From contig JAXGIS010000004.1 of assembly GCA_040770645.1 (NCBI GenBank), positions 37,600-101,599 of the forward strand: a DNA stretch of 64,000 bases. The letters are read 5' to 3'. Position numbers and translations under genes: made by a program. The stretch is from Thermoleophilia bacterium. Its GTDB lineage: Bacteria; Actinomycetota; Thermoleophilia; RBG-16-64-13. Under the pieces are notes generated by a model. The model did no database searches, was not told the origin of the DNA, and saw only the letters and a list, made by a program, of their open reading frames with translations. Shown here one piece after another: positions 19,366 through 27,836 of this stretch; the stretch's first letter is position 1, and each line of letters opens with the position of its first letter.

Positions 19366-20607
19366 CTACGAATGGATTTCGTCCTCGAACAAACCCATGC
19401 CGGGCACAAAGGCCGCCGCCCGCCGGCACAGGTCATCCACAATGCCCTGCAACCAAGCTTCACCCTGTGCGGTGACGGCGGCCGGCAACTTCTGGATGGT
19501 AGAGACGTATTCCGCTTGGATCGAGTTCGCACGACCTCCCACCGCCTCGCGAAAAGAGGCCAGGAACTCGTCACGCCCCGCGCTGGACGGCTCCTGGAAG
19601 AACAGAGCGCATATCTCCGCCACGCACTCCTTGAGCCCGGCCCGAGCCGTATCGCTGGGATAGACCCCCTCCACCATCACCCGCAGTCGCTTGGTACGCT
19701 CCTCTTTGGCCAGCATCAGCATCTCCAGAGCGCCTTCGTACACCGCCTGTCCCAACTCCTGGGCTGCGAAGAACGGCCGGCGCACCTGCCGGTACCATTC
19801 CTCCAACGCAACCAGGTTGGCCAGGTAGGTCAAGTTGTTGGTCACGACCCGCCGCAGATTCTTGTGTGCGCGAAGAGCCACACTCCGCTCTACCCCGGGG
19901 TGAGGAGCCACGATCACGAATCGATCATCCTCCCCGATATCGTCCCGCAGGATAGAACCTGCGGCCGTGACGGTGCCGTAACCGACCCGTACCGGCCCCA
20001 CCGACCCCCCTTGGCCCCCCAGGAAGATGGGGCGGCGATTCAGCATCACTCCCCGTGGCACGTCACCGAAGAGCGAAGCCGTGGTCTTGTTTCCATCGGG
20101 GGTGAAGTTGAAGTGAATGTAGGAGCTGCCCACCTCGCTGTGATCCTTGCGACTGGTGCCGCCCGCCATGAGGCAGTCACAGAAGTTGATGAGACTACCC
20201 AGCGTGACAAAAGGAAAGAGAATGGTTTGCTTGAGGCCCACGCAGTGGGCACCGTTGGCCTCCTCCTCCAGAATGCTGCCTTCGCGCACGTGAGCGCCCA
20301 ATCCCATATTTGCCTTGGCCAAGAAGACCGACCTATGGAAGTAGCCGCCTTTCAGTTCCACATGGGGCCCCAAACGGCAGTCGTCAATGGTGACCGGTCC
20401 CTCGGCCCCCAACTTGACACCGGCCGAGATGACAGTGGCGGCGCCGTAGATGCGACATCCAGGGAACAGCACCACGCCACGCGTTGAGATGCGCTCGAGA
20501 TCCACTTCCGGACCGATGTCAAGAGTCAGGGGGTTGGGTATCTGCACCCCTCTGCGGATGAGTTCGACTATAGCCTCGTGGCTTCTGGGTCGCAGTTCCA
20601 TGGTCAT
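19366..20607 (-). CDS. Left-handed beta-helix acyl/acetyltransferase, GlmU C-terminal-like, with helical C-terminal extension
   Basis: Start at MTMELRP (20607). Hexapeptide-repeat region (VLFPGCRIYGAATVISAGVKLG...GPHVELKGGYF...), then ~120 aa helical. Operon with glmM and nagB. Confidence 0.65.
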   Translation of the reverse strand: MTMELRPRSHEAIVELIRRGVQIPNPLTLDIGPEVDLERISTRGVVLFPGCRIYGAATVISAGVKLGAEGPVTIDDCRLGPHVELKGGYFHRSVFLAKANMGLGAHVREGSILEEEANGAHCVGLKQTILFPFVTLGSLINFCDCLMAGGTSRKDHSEVGSSYIHFNFTPDGNKTTASLFGDVPRGVMLNRRPIFLGGQGGSVGPVRVGYGTVTAAGSILRDDIGEDDRFVIVAPHPGVERSVALRAHKNLRRVVTNNLTYLANLVALEEWYRQVRRPFFAAQELGQAVYEGALEMLMLAKEERTKRLRVMVEGVYPSDTARAGLKECVAEICALFFQEPSSAGRDEFLASFREAVGGRANSIQAEYVSTIQKLPAAVTAQGEAWLQGIVDDLCRRAAAFVPGMGLFEDEIHS

Positions 20608-20887
20608 TCCCCGTGCGATAGGATGACCGAGCATGAGCGCCGAGCATGGGCACCGAGCATGGGCAACTCCTCGGAGGGCGCTTCGCCCGTTTTGAAGGCC
20701 GCAGGGAAGAGTGGACCAGGACCGGGCTGCTGTCAAGTGGCTAGGTGTTGATGAATTCCCCCAACCTCCTGGCGACATACACGTCCGGACCGGACTCAAC
20801 GAAGGAGAGCGCCACCCGATGCACGCTCCCGCCAGACTGCGGTGGCTGCGCTCAGCGTCCGGTGACCGTGGTCACCCTCATGCGTCT

Positions 20888-21925
20888 TCAACCGGCGTCG
20901 TGGTGACCCGCCCCCGCGGCATAACGGCCACCCACGGGTCCCAGGAAGCGCCTCCCGTACCTGAGGACCTCTTGGACCTTCCCGCGAGCGATGAGTTCCT
21001 TGACCGCGGCCTGAACCACAGCCGGGGAGCGGTCTAGGAAGACGACGGACAGATCCCACTCGTCCATAGGGTGGCGGCCCACCACTGCCATAATGGCGTC
21101 CATCAACTCGGAGTCAGGGGGTTCCACCCCACCGTCGGCGCCGGCTGATGGAGCGATATCCGCTAACGAGGGGGCATCGCATGATGAGGTGGGTCCAGTG
21201 GACGGTGGCGGCGGAACAGCCTCCGCCACCCGACCGAGGATAGACACCGCCTCCGCCACCCTGTCTTCCAACGGCGGATGCACCCAAGCCTCCGCGGGTG
21301 AACGAACGGGGGTGTTGACGTGGATTGCATCGGGGCCGATACGATCCAGCACCCGTGCCAGATCGGCCAGTTGCTCACCACTATCGTTGAGGCCCGCCAC
21401 AAGCATAACCTCCACCCACAACTTGCCCTCGAACTGTGACCGAAAGCTGGCCAACCCCGCCACGAAGTCGCTGTAGTGCAGCGATGGGTGTGGACGATTG
21501 ATCCGCCGATAGAGAGAGGCCGAGCCCGCGTCCACCGAAGGGAGCACGGCATCGGCGCCCAGGAGCTCCGCGCGCACCCCCGGGAGATACAAGAGGGAGC
21601 CGTTGGTAAGCACGGCCACCGGAACCTCGCTCAGCACTTTGATCTCGGACAGCAACCTACCCATCTGACTGTGCAGCAGCGGCTCGCCCGAACCGACGAA
21701 GGTGATCCAGTCGATCTCCCTACATTCGGGGCGCGACAACACGCGGCGCACCTCGTCGACCACATCCTCGAGAGGGCAATAGGGCGCGCGTCGGACAGAC
21801 AGAGGGCGCGTTCGCCCCAGTTGACAATAGACGCAGTTCCAGTTGCAGGTCTTGAGGGGGATCGTGTCTATGCCGAGTGATCTACCCAGCCTGCGGGACG
21901 AGACGGGTCCAAAGACGTACTTCAT
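20888..21925 (-). CDS. Radical SAM enzyme (COG0731-like) with C-terminal winged-helix-like extension
   Basis: MKYVFGPVSSRRLGRSLGIDTIPLKTCNWNCVYCQLGRT carries the CxxxCxxC motif. Also FVGSGEPLL and AVLTNGSLL. The C-terminus reads VVQAAVKELIARGKVQEV. Confidence 0.8.
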   Translation of the reverse strand: MKYVFGPVSSRRLGRSLGIDTIPLKTCNWNCVYCQLGRTRPLSVRRAPYCPLEDVVDEVRRVLSRPECREIDWITFVGSGEPLLHSQMGRLLSEIKVLSEVPVAVLTNGSLLYLPGVRAELLGADAVLPSVDAGSASLYRRINRPHPSLHYSDFVAGLASFRSQFEGKLWVEVMLVAGLNDSGEQLADLARVLDRIGPDAIHVNTPVRSPAEAWVHPPLEDRVAEAVSILGRVAEAVPPPPSTGPTSSCDAPSLADIAPSAGADGGVEPPDSELMDAIMAVVGRHPMDEWDLSVVFLDRSPAVVQAAVKELIARGKVQEVLRYGRRFLGPVGGRYAAGAGHHDAG

Positions 21926-21982
21926 GCAAGGATGGTGCCGCACCTCACCCACAATCATGTGCAGGCGTCCGTGGGCGCAGGG

Positions 21983-22873
21983 TCAGGAGGCTCGGAGGTT
22001 GCCCTTGGTGAGGTAGCGATTGAATTCTTTGCGCCCCCCGCCCGCCGCCACGATCTCGACGGTATGGGCAACATCGGCCACCACCGATCCCGAGAGCCAC
22101 GTGACCGGGGTGTCGGCGAAGGCAGACGGGAGCATGGGGGTCGATGCGCCCACCATGGCCACCTCACGACAGGAGGCACAAGCCGCTAGGAGTCCGTCGA
22201 TGCTGCCGTTGGTGATGGTACCGCTGGTGATGATGGCGATGTCGCATTTGGGAAGTACTTCATAAGCCTCATCGGCAGGCAGGCAGTCGCCCTCGTCCCG
22301 CCTCTCGAAGATGTGGAGGTGCCTGCATCGCGACCGCAGTGGCCTAACCAGGGGTCCGAAGAACCCAACCATGCCCACGATATCTTCCGGCCGAACCGCA
22401 AGGTATTCGAGAAGATCTCCCGGGAGTAGGGAGACGTCAGCACGGTTGACCAGAGCATTCACTGCCGCAAGCGCCACCGCCGCCGTCACTGAATCGGGCG
22501 ACCTAAGGTTTTCGACCAACTCAGCCGACGAACGCCCGATGTAACCCTGGAACGCGGCGCCGGCCTGCGGCGGCGCCACCCCCGCGTCAGGGTCGCCGCA
22601 ACACCCGGCCGACCACACCGGATGTTGCGTCAGAGCCACCCCCGCACTTCCGTCGACCAGTTGGACGGCGGAGTATTTCCGTCCCACCACAATATCGGAC
22701 ACCACAGGGTCCGCCATGGTAGTGCGGCCACCGTCTGCGCCCCGAGGCGCAGAGACAATCCGCGCGATGCGCTCGACCATGGGCAACGCAGTGCCGAGCG
22801 CGTGTTCGCTCGGGAGGGCACCCCCGGGGGCGCCGCCAGACGCCCCCGGGTCACACGGAGGAGTAGTACTCAC
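21983..22873 (-). CDS. DUF4213/DUF364 (putative heavy-metal chelation, Rossmann-like) protein
   Basis: VVGRKYSAVQLVDGSAGVALT (DUF4213-like) and IVGMVGFFGPLVRPL...LPKCDIAIITSGTITNGSIDGLL...VAMVGASTPMLP (DUF364-like). The GTG start directly abuts the DUF5320 stop. Confidence 0.75.
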   Translation of the reverse strand: MSTTPPCDPGASGGAPGGALPSEHALGTALPMVERIARIVSAPRGADGGRTTMADPVVSDIVVGRKYSAVQLVDGSAGVALTQHPVWSAGCCGDPDAGVAPPQAGAAFQGYIGRSSAELVENLRSPDSVTAAVALAAVNALVNRADVSLLPGDLLEYLAVRPEDIVGMVGFFGPLVRPLRSRCRHLHIFERRDEGDCLPADEAYEVLPKCDIAIITSGTITNGSIDGLLAACASCREVAMVGASTPMLPSAFADTPVTWLSGSVVADVAHTVEIVAAGGGRKEFNRYLTKGNLRAS

Positions 22874-23161
22874 TTATTTCTCTCTTCTATCGGGTGGAGC
22901 GGCCACAGATTGCATGGATCTCCGCCGCCAAGCCCGCGCAGGATCTGAGATGCCGAGAAAGCGATTGCGCCTACCCCGGCCCCATCCGCCGGAGAGGCGA
23001 CGGCCCAAGAACCTGCCTGCTCCCAGCGCGAAACGCCATCCCCCCAGCCGGCCGACCCCAAGCCTGCCACCTGCGGATTCGCCGGAGCCCATGCAGTAGC
23101 CACCACCCCGACCCGTCATCGGCCCGTTTCCCTGCGGACCGGTTCTGTCACCACCAGGCAT
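22874..23161 (-). CDS. DUF5320 family protein
   Basis: MPGGDRTGPQGNGPMTGRGGGYCMG... followed by a Gly/Arg-rich region, the hallmark N-terminus of DUF5320. Confidence 0.7.
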   Translation of the reverse strand: MPGGDRTGPQGNGPMTGRGGGYCMGSGESAGGRLGVGRLGGWRFALGAGRFLGRRLSGGWGRGRRNRFLGISDPARAWRRRSMQSVAAPPDRREK

Positions 23162-23384
23162 CACTGCCCCCTTTCGTGAGGATGGTGCGCAACCACGGCC
23201 ATCCCTGTACACGCTTCCACGGCACCATCCATCGTCCATCTATATGCATTTTACATCTATAACTCCGCCACAAGCAAGCCCTGTTCTCTGCGTCCCCACC
23301 CCTCAGAAGACCCATCCTCGGCACCTGCACCTACATCAGGCCACGCCGTTCATCTGTTCTTTTCCCATGCTAGATGATAAGGAA

Positions 23385-23410
23385 GATGAAGGTAATTGAT
23401 GAAGGTAATG
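23385..23410 (+). repeat. Tandem 13-bp direct repeat in the leader of the 23454 ORF
   Basis: GATGAAGGTAATT GATGAAGGTAATG, inside a visibly AT-richer ~210-bp intergenic stretch. Confidence 0.8.
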
Positions 23411-23453
23411 GAAGTCAGGAGCTCAGCCGATACTGGGAGCTAAGGGGGTCTCC

Positions 23454-24794
23454 ATGGCAGGACGCGGCGATCAGGCACTCACGATCCACTTATCCGGACC
23501 ACTCTCCGGCTGCAATCAGACGCAAAGAGAGGCCTGGCGTCAGGAGTTGGCCCAACTGCTCCACGAATTCACCTGTACCAGCCCCCACACCTGGGGTGAC
23601 ACATGGGACTTCTCACGCAATCTGCGCGCGGTAGCCCAGTGCGACATTCTGGTGGCCAACATGTGGAAGGAGTCCATAGGCACTACTTTTGACATCATCT
23701 ACGCCCGCAATCTCGGTAGACCCATCGTCCTCATCGATCCCAATCACCTGGAGAACAAGCTGCTCGAGGGCTTCGTGAGCCCCGCCAAACCCGTTTCCAA
23801 CCTGCGCAAAGCAGCCTCCCTGGTACGGGAACTGGCAAACACCATGACTTCTTTCGATATTCGTAAGAAAGACGGCACTTTCGAGCCCTTCAGCCGTACA
23901 AAGCTGATACGTTCGGTGAGGCTGGCAGTGGCTGAAGCCGGGATCGCCGACATCGAGTTCCCTAACCAAATCATCGCCCCCGTGGCCGAAGCCCTGCTGC
24001 GCATGACGCAGACCCGTGTGGCCACAACTGAAGACATCCGAGATCAACTGTTCTTGCAACTCGATCGAATAACTGAGCTCGTCACCGAACGCGCCTTCAC
24101 ACGTGAAGCAGCCGCGGCGGTCAAGGAGGCTTGGCGCAGCCGTGAGGCGCGCAAGCAAGGTGATCAGGCTATTGATGCTCTGCGATCAGAGATCGAGGGA
24201 CTGAGGAACGAGTTGGCTGCACGGGAGACCCGGATAGCGCAGTTGCAGTCCGCCTTGAGCGAGAAGTCGCCACGGGCGGGTGGACCTGATGGAAGCGGTC
24301 TCCAACACCCAACCGATCCGATGGATGGGGTACCGCCTCCTGCGAGCGTGGCCGATAGCCTCCAACGCGCGGCTGCGGAGTTCGCCGACTGCATGGTCGT
24401 CCTTCCACAGGCCATGGACTCGGCCGCAGACTGTCCGCTCGAGGACCCACTCAAGGCCTTGATCGCCATACGGCTTCTGGGGAGGTGTACGCGCGAACGC
24501 ATGGCCGCACGCACGATGGGAACCCACTTTGTGGGCCCCAAGCAGTGGTTCTCGAACCACCGTGAAGAAGCCCCTTGGCTGGAGTACGCGCCACACGAGA
24601 GCCCAACCACCGCAGGGAAGTTCGGCAGTGAACGCACCTTCCTAGTGGACGGCCGGCCCACATTCATGGAGCAACACCTCAAGATCGGCGCCGGCGGGGT
24701 CACATCCACTTTGCGCATCCACTTCAAGTTCGACGAGCACGGGCGCGCGATCATCGGCCACTGCGGGCGCCATCTCCCCAACACCAAGAGCTGA
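23454..24794 (+). CDS. Multidomain protein: nucleoside 2-deoxyribosyltransferase-like domain + ATP-cone + coiled coil + unassigned C-terminal domain
   Basis: aa 8-100: IHLSGPLSG...AVAQCDILVANMWKESIGTTFDIIYARNLGRPIVLI (NDT/Rcl-like). aa ~133-215: FDIRKKDGTFEPFSRTKLIRSVRLAVAEAG...TTEDIRDQLFLQL (ATP-cone). aa ~225-270: coiled coil. C-terminus ...YAPHESPTTAGKFGSERTF...TLRIHFKFDEHGRAIIGHCGRHL is not assigned. RBS AAGGGGG lies before the ATG. Confidence 0.7.
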   Translation: MAGRGDQALTIHLSGPLSGCNQTQREAWRQELAQLLHEFTCTSPHTWGDTWDFSRNLRAVAQCDILVANMWKESIGTTFDIIYARNLGRPIVLIDPNHLENKLLEGFVSPAKPVSNLRKAASLVRELANTMTSFDIRKKDGTFEPFSRTKLIRSVRLAVAEAGIADIEFPNQIIAPVAEALLRMTQTRVATTEDIRDQLFLQLDRITELVTERAFTREAAAAVKEAWRSREARKQGDQAIDALRSEIEGLRNELAARETRIAQLQSALSEKSPRAGGPDGSGLQHPTDPMDGVPPPASVADSLQRAAAEFADCMVVLPQAMDSAADCPLEDPLKALIAIRLLGRCTRERMAARTMGTHFVGPKQWFSNHREEAPWLEYAPHESPTTAGKFGSERTFLVDGRPTFMEQHLKIGAGGVTSTLRIHFKFDEHGRAIIGHCGRHLPNTKS

Positions 24795-24825
24795 AAGCCT
24801 GTCGACTTCCCCGTCTGAATGCACG

Positions 24826-24847
24826 GGGGGCCGGGCCCTCGGCCCCC
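24826..24847. terminator. GC hairpin between convergent genes
   Basis: GGGGGCCG-GGCCCT-CGGCCCCC, 8-bp stem, 30 nt after the stop at 24794. Confidence 0.45.
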
Positions 24848-24897: not shown

Positions 24898-25925
24898 TCA
24901 ACCCCTTCCAAACGCTGCCAATGCGCCGCCGCACACCACGAGAATCACCAGTAGAGCTACCTTGGCGCCAAGCCGTTCGTGGCGGCGGAGAAACACCATC
25001 GCAAACACGAAGGTGAAAATCGGTGCCGTGTTCTTCAGCGCCGTAATAACCGCTACCTTGCCTCCGTACTGGAGCGCCAGCATGAAACCAGCCGTGCCCA
25101 TTGCAGACGCCACGCCGGAGAGCAACAGATATGCACCCCTCTTCCACCCTACTGAGAAGGGCTCGCGCAACTTGCCCCCCACGGCGTACACGGCGACCAT
25201 GACCAACAATGCCACAGTGATATTGATAGCCGCTCCAAACAAAGCGACCGGCATCTCATTGACACCGAGTGCTCTCAAGACACCAGCGCTGGCAAAGAGG
25301 AGTCCGGAGAGTATGGCGAACGCCATACCCGAGCGCTCAGTACGAGCAGGGCACTGGGAGCCGGCCCGCGGCTCAGCCCCCGCAAGTGCCACGGAGCCAA
25401 GCGCACCCATTCGGGTCTCCTCCGCACCCAAGTCAGGGAATGTGGCTGCAACATCCTCCGTATCAACCTCGCTGTTCCCGGCCGTCTCACGAATGAAAGC
25501 TATGGCTCCCACCATAAGGATGACGATGCCGGCTCCCGACACGAGTGAGATGCTCTGTCCCAGCACGAGGAGCGCAATCACCAACGCAAACAGGTTGTCG
25601 GTCATGGTGAGCGAAGCCGTGCGTGTGGCACAATACGGTGGATGGCGGCAAAGTTGGCGGCCTGCCCGGCCAGGCCGGCCATCAAACCTGCAGAGCAAAG
25701 TAGAAAACCCCAGAGGACTCACTCCGTATGGCGGATACGCCCCCAACAAGCACACTGCAGCAACCAGGGCCAACGTACCCCCCACCGTTGATGAGAAGAG
25801 CAGTGAACGGGGAGATCCGCGCTCCACGGAGTCCCAGCTGCATGAACACATACGTCCACGCAAACCCGAACGCAGACAACAAAGCGAACGCGGTGGTGGT
25901 CAAACCCTCTTCTCCTCCGCGACAC
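24898..25925 (-). pseudogene. EamA/DMT-family transporter, frame-disrupted
   Basis: The C-terminal half in ORF 24898-25863 (FAILSGLLFASAGVLRALG...ITALKNTAPIFTFVFAMVFLRRHE) is EamA-like. The N-terminal TM segments (TTTAFALLSAFGFAWTYVFMQLGL) lie in the frame of ORF 25682-26485. Confidence 0.6.
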
Positions 25926-26102: not shown

Positions 26103-26224
26103 GTGAAGGGGAGTAGCCGGCTCGCCCCAGCCTTGTAGGCCACACGGGCGAGCGGTGCGTTCGTCAGTACGGGAATACGGCAGAGCCGATTCCCCGGGCG
26201 CACCTTCGTGGCGAGACCTTCGGT
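26103..26224 (+). promoter_or_regulatory. yybP-ykoY (manganese) riboswitch
   Basis: 5' GAAGGGGAGUAGC... and 3' ...GGCGAGACCUUC conserved blocks, with P1 pairing GAAGG/CCUUC, upstream of a TerC-family gene (canonical context). Followed by the hairpin GGAGG-N10-CCUCC at 26236-26256. Confidence 0.8.
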
Positions 26225-26297
26225 GATTGTTGCCGGAGGTCTTCTGCGGCCTCCGAGAGTGGACCGCAAGCGAACGGAAAGGGTAGGGACACCCTGC

Positions 26298-27228
26298 ATG
26301 ACCGGCACCATCCCCTGGATCGCATTCGGCGTGTTGGTGGCTCTTCTCATCACGCTCGACCTCTTCGTTTTCAGTCGCAGGCAAGAAGTGCCCACCGTCA
26401 GGCAGGCATTGCGGTGGTGTGCGTTCTGGATCACGCTGGCCTTCCTGTTCGCGGGTTTCGTGTGGTGGTGGCAGGGCGGCGCCATGGCCCGGGAGTTCGT
26501 AGCGGCCTACCTGGTGGAGGAGTCACTGAGCGTCGACAACATGTTCGTGTTCCTCCTGGTGTTCACGGCTCTCGGTATCGGACCGGAACATCAGCGCAAA
26601 GTGCTGTACCTGGGTATCTTCGGCGCTATTGTGCTGCGATTGTTGTTCATCCTCGGGGACTCGCCCTGCTCGAGCACTTGTCTTGGACCATGTATGTGTT
26701 CGGAGCTCTGCTCATCTTCACCGCCGTGCGCATGTGGCGATCACAGGAAGCCACCATCGACCTGCAAAAGAACCCCGTGGTCAGGTTCGCGGAGCGCCAT
26801 CTTGCCCTCGACCCCACTTACAAAGGCCACTCCTTCGTCACCCGAGTCAACGGCAGGCTCCTCTTCACCCCCTGGTCTTGGCACTGGTCGCCATCGAATC
26901 GGCCGACATCGTGTTTGCGGTGGACTCCGTCCCTGCGGTCCTCGCCATAAGTCGCCATCCCTTCATCGCCTTCAGTTCCAACGTCTTCGCCATCCTCGGG
27001 CTGCGGTCGCTGTATTTCGCACTGGCCGGATGCATGAACCGCTTCGCCTACCTGCACTACGGCCTTGCCGCCATTCTGGCTGTAGTGGGGATCAAGATGA
27101 TCATCGCCGAGTGGTATCACGTGCCCACGGTCGCCGCCTTGGGCTTCATCGCGGTGGCGCTGGCGGTTTCCATTCTGGTATCCGTAGTCAAGACGAGGCG
27201 GAGGGGTGCCGGGTGGCGTCGGTCATGA
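26298..27228 (+). pseudogene. TerC/Alx-family membrane protein, two frame disruptions
   Basis: MTGTIPWIAFGVLVALLITLDLFVF...AYLVEESLSVDNMFVFLLVF (frame 1) / LLEHLSWTMYVFGALLIFTAVRMW (frame 2) / LVAIESADIVFAVDSVPAVLAISRHPFIAFSSNVFAILGLRSLYF (frame 3). Confidence 0.75.
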
Positions 27229-27836
27229 AACTGGACCATACTCCGGCTACCCCATCAGGAGATACGGTCGGAGACACTGCTGGTTAAAAGGCCTCCTGGG
27301 CGTCAGCCGGTATAAGTCGAGCGCTGCCCAGGGAACCCAGGTGCTTCTCTAGGCACGCGGATACCATGCCACCGGATCGGATAGACACGGTTATTTCGTC
27401 TGATCACAATGCTGCGGTACTTTGAGACGGACCAACGATGCGATCGCGGCTATACTGGGAAAGCGAGCGACGATCACGGCTGGAAAGCCAATATGCGTAA
27501 GACGCTGCCTAGCGCCGCTAACCGATCGATCCTCGTCAGCATTCCGGAATATCTCGAGCCGGAGATGTCCCGAATGTCGCATAGTGTGGAGTGCCAGCCA
27601 GACACCTTCAGGAGACGACCTCAAGATCCCGCCAATGCATCCCAGACTTCCCCACTGTAGCCAATCCGTACGTGGCCGAACGGCTAACCACGGTGATTCA
27701 TCAAGACTCGGAGCGGAATTGGTCTCCGCCGTTGGCCCGCATCGCCTAGGATATTTGCGACCATCTGCTTGAAGCACGAAGAGAACGTACCAATAACCCG
27801 CCAGCAACAAACCGAAGCAACGAACACGAAGGAGGA

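Follow-up and report, generated by a model that had tools for sequence, protein, structure and literature searches.

HEC-07 (Hma-embedded candidate 07; PADLOC PDLC04158-04161) is a single-protein system reported to protect Escherichia coli from phages, in a study in which seven of nine candidate systems cut plaquing in E. coli, the exceptions being HEC-01 and HEC-09 (bioRxiv 10.1101/2024.01.29.577857). The N-terminal part of HEC-07 was described there as AdoMetDC-like plus thioredoxin-like and the C-terminal part as RelE/HP0892-like, with a conserved histidine near its end (bioRxiv 10.1101/2024.01.29.577857). In the case of the Menshen effector NsnC, the C-terminal domain (NsnC-C) was assigned as BECR/YafQ-like, of the PB-BECR1 type, with a His-Arg-His triad (PMC12065111). 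The present analysis considers a 446-amino acid (aa) protein encoded within a 64,000-nucleotide stretch (the window) of contig JAXGIS010000004.1 from a Thermoleophilia bacterium (assembly GCA_040770645.1). In this protein, a nucleoside 2'-deoxyribosyltransferase (NDT)-like domain, an ATP-cone and a coiled coil precede a C-terminal domain that is related by sequence to those of HEC-07 and NsnC. We lean, by a little, towards reading it as a single-chain RNase toxin or defence protein that is gated by nucleotides and akin to HEC-07.

The relation to HEC-07 and NsnC was revealed by several comparisons. When the protein was considered against PADLOC, aa 380-442 matched Menshen NsnC (PDLC03912; E=4.4e-11), while a 41%-identical relative from a metagenome-assembled genome (MAG) matched HEC-07 over aa 229-429 (E=3.6e-15; profile positions ~350-551). 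In a PADLOC survey of 27 family representatives of the same architecture, HEC-07 was matched by 21 (best E=2.9e-19) and NsnC by 19 (best E=1.4e-17). A tblastn search of plasmids led to 529-aa hypothetical proteins encoded by Pseudomonas plasmids of about 585-600 kb, which are themselves HEC-07 according to PADLOC, matching profile positions 91-549 of 553. When such a plasmid-encoded HEC-07 homologue was compared with the window protein by BLASTP, aa 212-441 of the latter were aligned (E=2e-15; 30% identity), with the alignment closing in the Pseudomonas homologue with ...ERTFLYRGEPVFMDKHLKIG..TLRIHFE..VIGHCGRHL, and no similarity was detected between the N-terminal parts of the two proteins. 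Because the alignment covers aa 212-441 of the window protein, it is the C-terminal half that is common to HEC-07 and not the N-terminal half. Judging from these alignments, the C-terminal half of HEC-07 has its homologous counterpart in aa 212-446, comprising the coiled coil, a helical segment and the ~150-aa terminal domain, and the terminal domain is homologous to the NsnC effector domain. The final ~150 aa, left unassigned in an initial annotation made from the DNA sequence without database searches, have thus been placed by the NsnC match, the HEC-07 matches of the 21 representatives and the BLASTP alignment.

Residues of possible catalytic relevance are well conserved in this domain. Across the window family, His408 and His440 are invariant, while Glu382, Gly400 and Arg421 are conserved at 90% or more (Arg421 at over 90%). 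The conserved histidine, arginine and glutamate residues sit on the terminal strands, with the histidines lying on or just after the last strands. When aa 292-446 were modelled separately with AlphaFold2 (AF2), a long helix followed by antiparallel strands was obtained (predicted local distance difference test score [pLDDT] 89.8; predicted template modelling score 0.86). The identity of the domain as a RelE-type RNase is carried over, by analogy, from the literature on its HEC-07 and NsnC homologues, and we infer it on that basis.

The N-terminal part of the protein was next considered in a full-length AF2 model, for which 17 homologues served as input (mean pLDDT 81.9). In this model, aa 8-125 present a flavodoxin-like NDT fold, with Foldseek matching the region to nucleoside 2'-deoxyribosyltransferases, DNPH1 and the CMP N-glycosidase BcmB (E down to 2e-4, probability 1.0, target-normalised TM scores of 0.57-0.69; for PDB entries 8pqq, 7m5h, 2a0k, 4jen and 8rps, E-values of 2e-4 to 6e-3 and TM scores of 0.60-0.69). 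In Pfam searches with the 446-aa protein, DUF4406, Nuc_deoxyri_tr2 and Nuc_deoxyrib_tr all remained below threshold (E about 1e-3), although relatives surpassed the Nuc_deoxyrib_tr threshold (30.9 and 34.3 bits vs 28.8). When aligned with Rcl, Asp80 falls under the nucleophile glutamate, such that the catalytic Glu of the ...GT..E motif of NDT and DNPH1 (Rcl) is replaced by Asp in the window protein. Both the NDT/Rcl-like fold and this replacement had been read by eye in the initial annotation. Among 88 family representatives, the same position is occupied by Gly in 77 (87%); in the closest relatives it is mostly Glu, with Asp being found in the two nearest (P0002 and P0003). Other positions are strongly conserved across these representatives (Ser74, 97%; Gly76, 96%; Trp71, 92%; Glu73, 81%), and the retained Glu73, Ser74, Gly76, Thr77 and Asp64 resemble the motifs with which NDT and DNPH1 bind sugar and phosphate. 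Since the nucleophile position is Gly in most relatives and Asp in the window protein, the N-terminal domain is likelier to sense a ligand than to act as a glycosidase.

Assignment of the ATP-cone, also proposed in the initial annotation (at aa ~133-215), holds above the Pfam gathering score (PF03477 at aa 136-203; E=7.8e-8; 33.2 bits vs 25.8). The stretch RKKDGTFEPFSRTKL at aa 137-151 contains the ATP-cone hairpin motif K-[KR]-D-G..E.F...K-[LI] and is joined to a helical bundle, with helices at aa 148-161, 168-185 and 192-209 in the AF2 model. In close homologues, Lys138 and Lys150 are invariant and Asp140, Gly141 and Glu144 are at least 90% conserved, while Phe146 is conserved at 94% over the 88 representatives. 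The best PDB sequence match of this region is NrdR, and Foldseek also matched the ATP-cone-containing NrdB structure 5olk (probability 1.0). A conserved AW..RE helix around aa 225-233 may correspond to the last ATP-cone helix. The coiled coil that had been proposed to follow the ATP-cone appears in the model as a single helix, and it is here, at aa 212, that the BLASTP similarity to HEC-07 begins.

Although the gene was described as an orphan in the initial annotation, homologues were found, with a word-index search yielding 17 homologue clusters and a scan of the genomes of 185,579 species yielding 18 loci. Full-length relatives are encoded by Gaiellales, Thermoleophilia and other Actinomycetota MAGs, while relatives of only the N-terminal half were found in Planctomycetota, Acidobacteriota, and Gamma- and Deltaproteobacteria. 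A hidden Markov model (HMM) of the NDT-like and ATP-cone module, run over 1.84 billion representatives, gave 1067 matches at E<=1e-3, of which 199 had E<=1e-10 and 90 had E<=1e-30, these last two numbers placing the family at about 90-200 clusters. Most of the full-length proteins matched are about 365-450 aa long, with the module being N-terminal. Clustering of the tails of the 88 representatives revealed recurrent C-terminal types comprising 30, 27 (the window type), 11, 4, 3 and 2 clusters. The NDT-like and ATP-cone module is what stays the same in a family with at least six alternative C-terminal domains.

The other C-terminal types were considered in the same manner. Apart from one weak match to DUF4145 (HEPN-related; E=0.1), no Pfam family was matched by the tails of their representatives, the only PADLOC matches fell in the coiled-coil region, and searches of PDB sequences with two of these types gave no significant match. 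The commonest type (type 0; 30 clusters) bears the motif KSHxxIWG...DIP..AR..F and was matched by nothing in Pfam, PADLOC or PDB sequences, while the 11-cluster type (type 2) had no match in Pfam or PADLOC. Both tails, noted among proteins P0073-P0174 and at loci L014, L017, L018, L020 and L021, may represent undescribed effector domains. By eye, types 3-5 seem to finish in RelE/HigB-like strand motifs and one singleton seems to contain an Rx4H motif.

Varied tails on an unchanging head are what is commonly seen where one sensor is paired with exchangeable effectors. Because the head is constant, the tails are swapped and the catalytic residue is mostly lost, the family would seem to comprise a ligand-binding sensor joined to alternative effectors. 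From these homologies, the conservation pattern and the modular structure of the family, we infer RNase chemistry, ligands, gating and biological role as follows. By analogy to its homologues, the terminal domain would be a metal-independent RNase of the RelE/YafQ (BECR) type, probably acting via His408, Arg421 and His440, that would cleave mRNA or tRNA and so stop translation. The N-terminal module would read the nucleotide state of the cell, with the ATP-cone binding ATP or dATP and the NDT-like pocket binding a ligand resembling a nucleoside 5'-phosphate, cleavage of which would not be required. The coiled coil would relay ligand binding to the oligomeric state or conformation of the protein, such that the RNase would be freed only upon disturbance of the nucleotide pool, for instance during phage infection, with growth arrest or abortive infection as the outcome and no antitoxin or partner gene being necessary. 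In NrdR and ribonucleotide reductase (RNR), binding of ATP or dATP to the ATP-cone likewise alters the oligomeric state. The more specific version, in which the ATP-cone, possibly in concert with the NDT-like pocket, serves as an infection sensor for the ATP/dATP balance or for a phage-made nucleotide (e.g., a modified deoxynucleoside monophosphate) and switches on the RelE-like RNase through nucleotide-driven oligomerisation, is offered as a tentative possibility.

To place the gene in its genomic setting, neighbouring genes were compared across 21 loci. With no neighbour family being common to three or more of these loci, a conserved antitoxin or partner gene was ruled out. Indeed, the gene has no same-strand neighbour in the window, and no conserved small neighbour was found at the other loci. 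Only a 74%-identical relative (locus L002) presents the same upstream hexapeptide-repeat-like, radical SAM, DUF364 and DUF5320-like genes; beyond about 74% identity, synteny vanishes. Across all loci, housekeeping neighbours include transporters, a thiolase and a molybdopterin oxidoreductase, while defence-type neighbours include a type III restriction enzyme, SoFic, DpdF/DruE-like helicases, PDC candidates, Fic, RhuM and DUF4143. As judged by reading of the sequences, the loci with the most evident defence neighbours are of a C-terminal type other than that of the window protein. At those window-type loci with Pfam-annotated genes, the neighbours are mostly ordinary genes, with a VapC/PhD module occasionally found nearby.

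Several observations weigh against an RNase toxin or defence role. The RelE/BECR fold was not reproduced in structure comparisons, with the best match of the C-terminal model to the PDB by Foldseek having an E-value of 0.72 and nothing significant being found in BFVD. Phmmer and hmmsearch comparisons of the C-terminal domain and of a 31-sequence core profile with PDB sequences gave no match, hhalign against a 30-sequence YafQ profile gave a probability of 1% or less, as did comparison with E. coli YafQ alone, and aa 296-446 matched no Pfam family, toxin families included. When the C-terminal profile was used in a word-index search, a single protein was retrieved. The window protein itself has no PADLOC HEC-07 match, with the link being made via its relatives and by direct BLASTP. 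Moreover, loci of the window type lie among housekeeping genes (radical SAM, DUF364, EamA, transporters), in an upstream arrangement that is syntenic in the 74%-identical relative, and no relatives were found in the IMG/VR and GenBank phage collections. Finally, given that its own subclade retains Asp or Glu at the nucleophile position, NDT-like catalysis could persist in the window protein.

This last point touches on the model put forward in the initial annotation, in which the NDT-like domain is an N-glycosidase effector acting on nucleotides or nucleosides under control of the ATP-cone, with the C-terminus having an accessory or targeting role. While the NDT/DNPH1 fold detected by Foldseek, the presence of Asp80 where the closest relatives have Glu, and conservation of Glu73, Ser74, Gly76, Thr77 and Asp64 in the manner of sugar- and phosphate-binding motifs all speak for such activity, Gly occupies the nucleophile position in 77 of the 88 representatives, the domain common to the HEC-07 and NsnC effectors is the C-terminal one, and the part that is swapped among family members is likewise the C-terminus and not the N-terminus. 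Because one N-terminal module joins at least six unrelated C-terminal domains, this model probably has the roles of the domains reversed, and we consider it quite unlikely. It is less likely still, to the point of being improbable, that the C-terminal domain serves in binding or scaffolding rather than as a nuclease, with the protein being a nucleotide-responsive regulator. Such a role would agree with there being no significant structure or sequence match to any solved RNase, yet it sits poorly with the two invariant histidines and the conserved arginine and glutamate on the terminal strands, and with two independent studies having placed homologous domains in the RelE/YafQ group through structure comparison. 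The top-ranked, although non-significant, PDB match of the C-terminal model by Foldseek is, moreover, a contact-dependent growth inhibition toxin chain (6cp8_A).

A chromosomal regulator of growth or translation, namely a fused toxin-antitoxin-like switch that dampens translation upon a drop in ATP or dNTP pools and so acts in nucleotide homeostasis or stress survival, is the alternative that the local context favours, given the housekeeping neighbours and the synteny with the close relative. Association with mobile elements or phages is lacking in the window type, and ATP-cones are otherwise best known from RNR and NrdR, proteins that control nucleotide pools. Still, the sparse and patchy spread of the family over phyla, its polymorphic C-termini and the loss of synteny past about 74% identity do not fit well with such a role, and, among characterised proteins, the one most closely related to the C-terminal half acts against phages; we regard this alternative as unlikely. 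The HEC-07-like RNase toxin or defence protein thus remains the reading towards which we lean. As for the possible defence role suggested in the initial annotation, the suggestion gains from the homology of the C-terminal half to HEC-07, tested against phages, and to the NsnC effector domain, while the enrichment of homologues in defence islands that was proposed there as a check was not established, since window-type loci mostly lie beside housekeeping genes.

The features of the gene and of its flanks are listed in Table 1. The gene consists of a single open reading frame (ORF) that begins with ATG, immediately 5' of which is an AAGGGGG Shine-Dalgarno-like stretch; the span of 23240-24847 considered in the initial annotation corresponds to this ORF together with the upstream spacer and the downstream hairpin. 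Other members of the cluster represented by P0001 are NLG66820.1 and OPZ78747.1 ('ATP cone domain protein'), both from Actinobacteria MAGs; cluster members are labelled 'hypothetical' or 'ATP cone domain protein', and one comes from bin ADurb.Bin444.

Table 1. Features of the gene encoding the 446-aa multidomain protein and of its flanks (positions in the window).
Feature	Position	Strand	Remarks
Upstream spacer	23240..23453	+	214 bp, lower G+C, two-copy 13-bp direct repeat inside
Coding sequence of multidomain protein	23454..24794	+	Same sequence as cluster representative P0001
NDT/DNPH1-like alpha/beta domain, aa 8-125	23475..23828	+	Motifs HLSGPLSGC and CDILVANMWKESIGTTFD; Asp80 at nucleophile position
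ATP-cone, aa 133-212	23850..24089	+	Motif RKKDGTFEPFSRTKL then helices; Pfam, NrdR alignment, Foldseek
Single long helix, predicted coiled coil, aa 213-271	24090..24266	+	AF2 helix H213-271
Pro/Gly-rich disordered linker, aa 272-295	24267..24338	+	pLDDT below 50 at aa 272-291
C-terminal effector-like domain, aa 296-446	24339..24791	+	Common to HEC-07 and Menshen NsnC
G+C hairpin	24826..24847		9-bp stem, 4-nt loop; between gene and convergent EamA-like gene

In agreement with the initial annotation, the gene stands alone on the plus strand between minus-strand ORFs, namely those at 19366-23239 on its upstream side and an EamA-like one at 24898-25863 on its downstream side. The AT-richer character of the upstream region and its tandem repeat were likewise seen, with the spacer having a GC content of 0.51, as compared to about 0.60-0.69 in the surrounding windows, and with the direct repeat GATGAAGGTAAT(T/G) being present in 1.9 copies at 23385-23410 (TRF, period 13). 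Presumably, a promoter or operator is located in this spacer. When the flanks of the gene were scanned, no match to a sigma-70 consensus promoter or to an Rfam family was obtained. Of the downstream GC hairpin, the G+C stem was indeed found, although folding of the region was not better than that of shuffled sequences (z = -0.79). The hairpin has no T-run, and a terminator scan of the flanks found no terminator-like site; the hairpin may nonetheless be the terminator of the gene. Within the gene, GC content is about 0.56-0.58 in the NDT-like and ATP-cone part and about 0.63-0.66 in the coiled coil and C-terminal part, as compared to 0.66-0.69 in the upstream genes. This split might reflect separate origins of the two halves.

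By eye, the ORFs flanking the gene in the window are DUF5320-like, DUF364/radical-SAM-like and EamA-like. On the minus strand at 20888-23239, a small Gly-rich ORF containing MPGGDRTGPQGNGPMTGRGGGYC (DUF5320-like) adjoins ORFs resembling DUF364 and radical SAM proteins, also as read by eye; the counterparts of these genes at the L002 locus carry the Pfam domains Radical_SAM and DUF4213/DUF364. Further downstream, at 26208-27287, a TerC-like membrane protein is seemingly split between overlapping ORFs, with the N-terminal part being found there and the C-terminal part in 26629-27228, in different frames as read by eye, which could reflect a frameshift or a sequencing error.

Examination of the other loci revealed a C_GCAxxG_C_C (PF09719) gene immediately 5' of the homologue in one Gaiellales-like subclade, on the same strand and 8 bp away (L030, 2539-3057; L029, 10001-11089; L005, 2297-3073). 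In one contig the two are fused, as P0017. The PF09719 gene, which does not occur in the window, may represent an operon partner particular to that lineage. The C-terminal module was also noted in 524-568-aa proteins encoded by large plasmids of Variovorax, Bradyrhizobium and Pseudomonas nitroreducens (L025, 4861-6567; L026, 4996-6570; L027, 4786-6387). The coding sequence of the Bradyrhizobium plasmid is annotated at only 363 aa, and in its vicinity are a RelE/ParE toxin-antitoxin pair, a TrlF-like ATPase and insertion sequence elements. Finally, on the 4.8-kb Moellerella wisconsensis plasmid pW1-c (L024, 103-483), an unannotated 126-aa ORF with a TTG start is found beside mobC and corresponds to a stand-alone copy of the C-terminal domain (...FQHLSIG..IRVHF..VVIGYCGEHLP), which could be a free toxin or a remnant.

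Should the proposed role prove true, an ATP-cone that senses (d)ATP directly and allosterically would represent a new input for the logic of bacterial immunity and toxins, and HEC-07 would gain a relative with a recognisable ligand-binding sensor, rendering its mechanism of activation experimentally approachable. Were the infection-sensor version to hold, this would be the first ATP-cone-gated immune or toxin system, and the family would comprise roughly 100-200 clusters in which a constant sensor is combined with at least six interchangeable effectors. Several unannotated tails of the NDT-like and ATP-cone family are candidate new effectors. In the literature searched, no paper tying an ATP-cone to phage defence or toxins was found, and ATP-cone or NDT fusions go unmentioned in a recent survey of multidomain RelE/ParE toxins. 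Nor is an architecture combining an NDT-like domain, an ATP-cone and a C-terminal domain described in Pfam, NCBIfam, PADLOC or PHROGs.

Compared with known systems, the N-terminal domain shares the fold and the (D/E)-S-x-G-T motif region of NDT, DNPH1 (Rcl) and BcmB, although the nucleophile is Glu in those enzymes and Asp here, where regulatory and toxin-like domains follow in the same chain. Similarly, the ATP-cone is the same nucleotide-binding module as in NrdR and RNR, to which NrdR offers the best PDB sequence match, yet in the window protein it is fused to NDT-like and toxin-like domains rather than to a reductase or a zinc-ribbon repressor. As for the type II toxins RelE, YafQ and HP0892 (BECR), their fold and mechanism have been proposed in the literature for the homologous HEC-07 and NsnC domains, and the model of the window domain presents a long helix and subsequent antiparallel strands; these toxins are, however, about 90 aa long, as opposed to about 150 aa here, show no detectable similarity to the window domain by sequence or Foldseek, and differ in having an antitoxin gene, none of which adjoins the gene here. 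Menshen NsnC is matched by aa 380-442, and the His-Arg-His pattern of the window protein fits the NsnC-C triad; still, Menshen comprises three genes, with NsnC bearing an inPIN N-terminus, whereas a single gene without inPIN is found here. Membership in Menshen was ruled out, as no NsnA (ParB-DUF262) or NsnB (ABC ATPase) gene lies nearby. HEC-07 differs in being longer (about 530-555 aa vs 446 aa) and in having an AdoMetDC-like and thioredoxin-like N-terminus in place of the NDT-like domain and ATP-cone, and phage protection was reported for HEC-07 itself. At the same time, both are single polypeptides with no partner gene, share a homologous C-terminus of ~230 aa and retain a histidine near the C-terminal end. 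The single-protein kind typified by HEC-07 is thus already known, with the novelty of the window protein probably lying in its previously undescribed NDT-like and ATP-cone sensor module.

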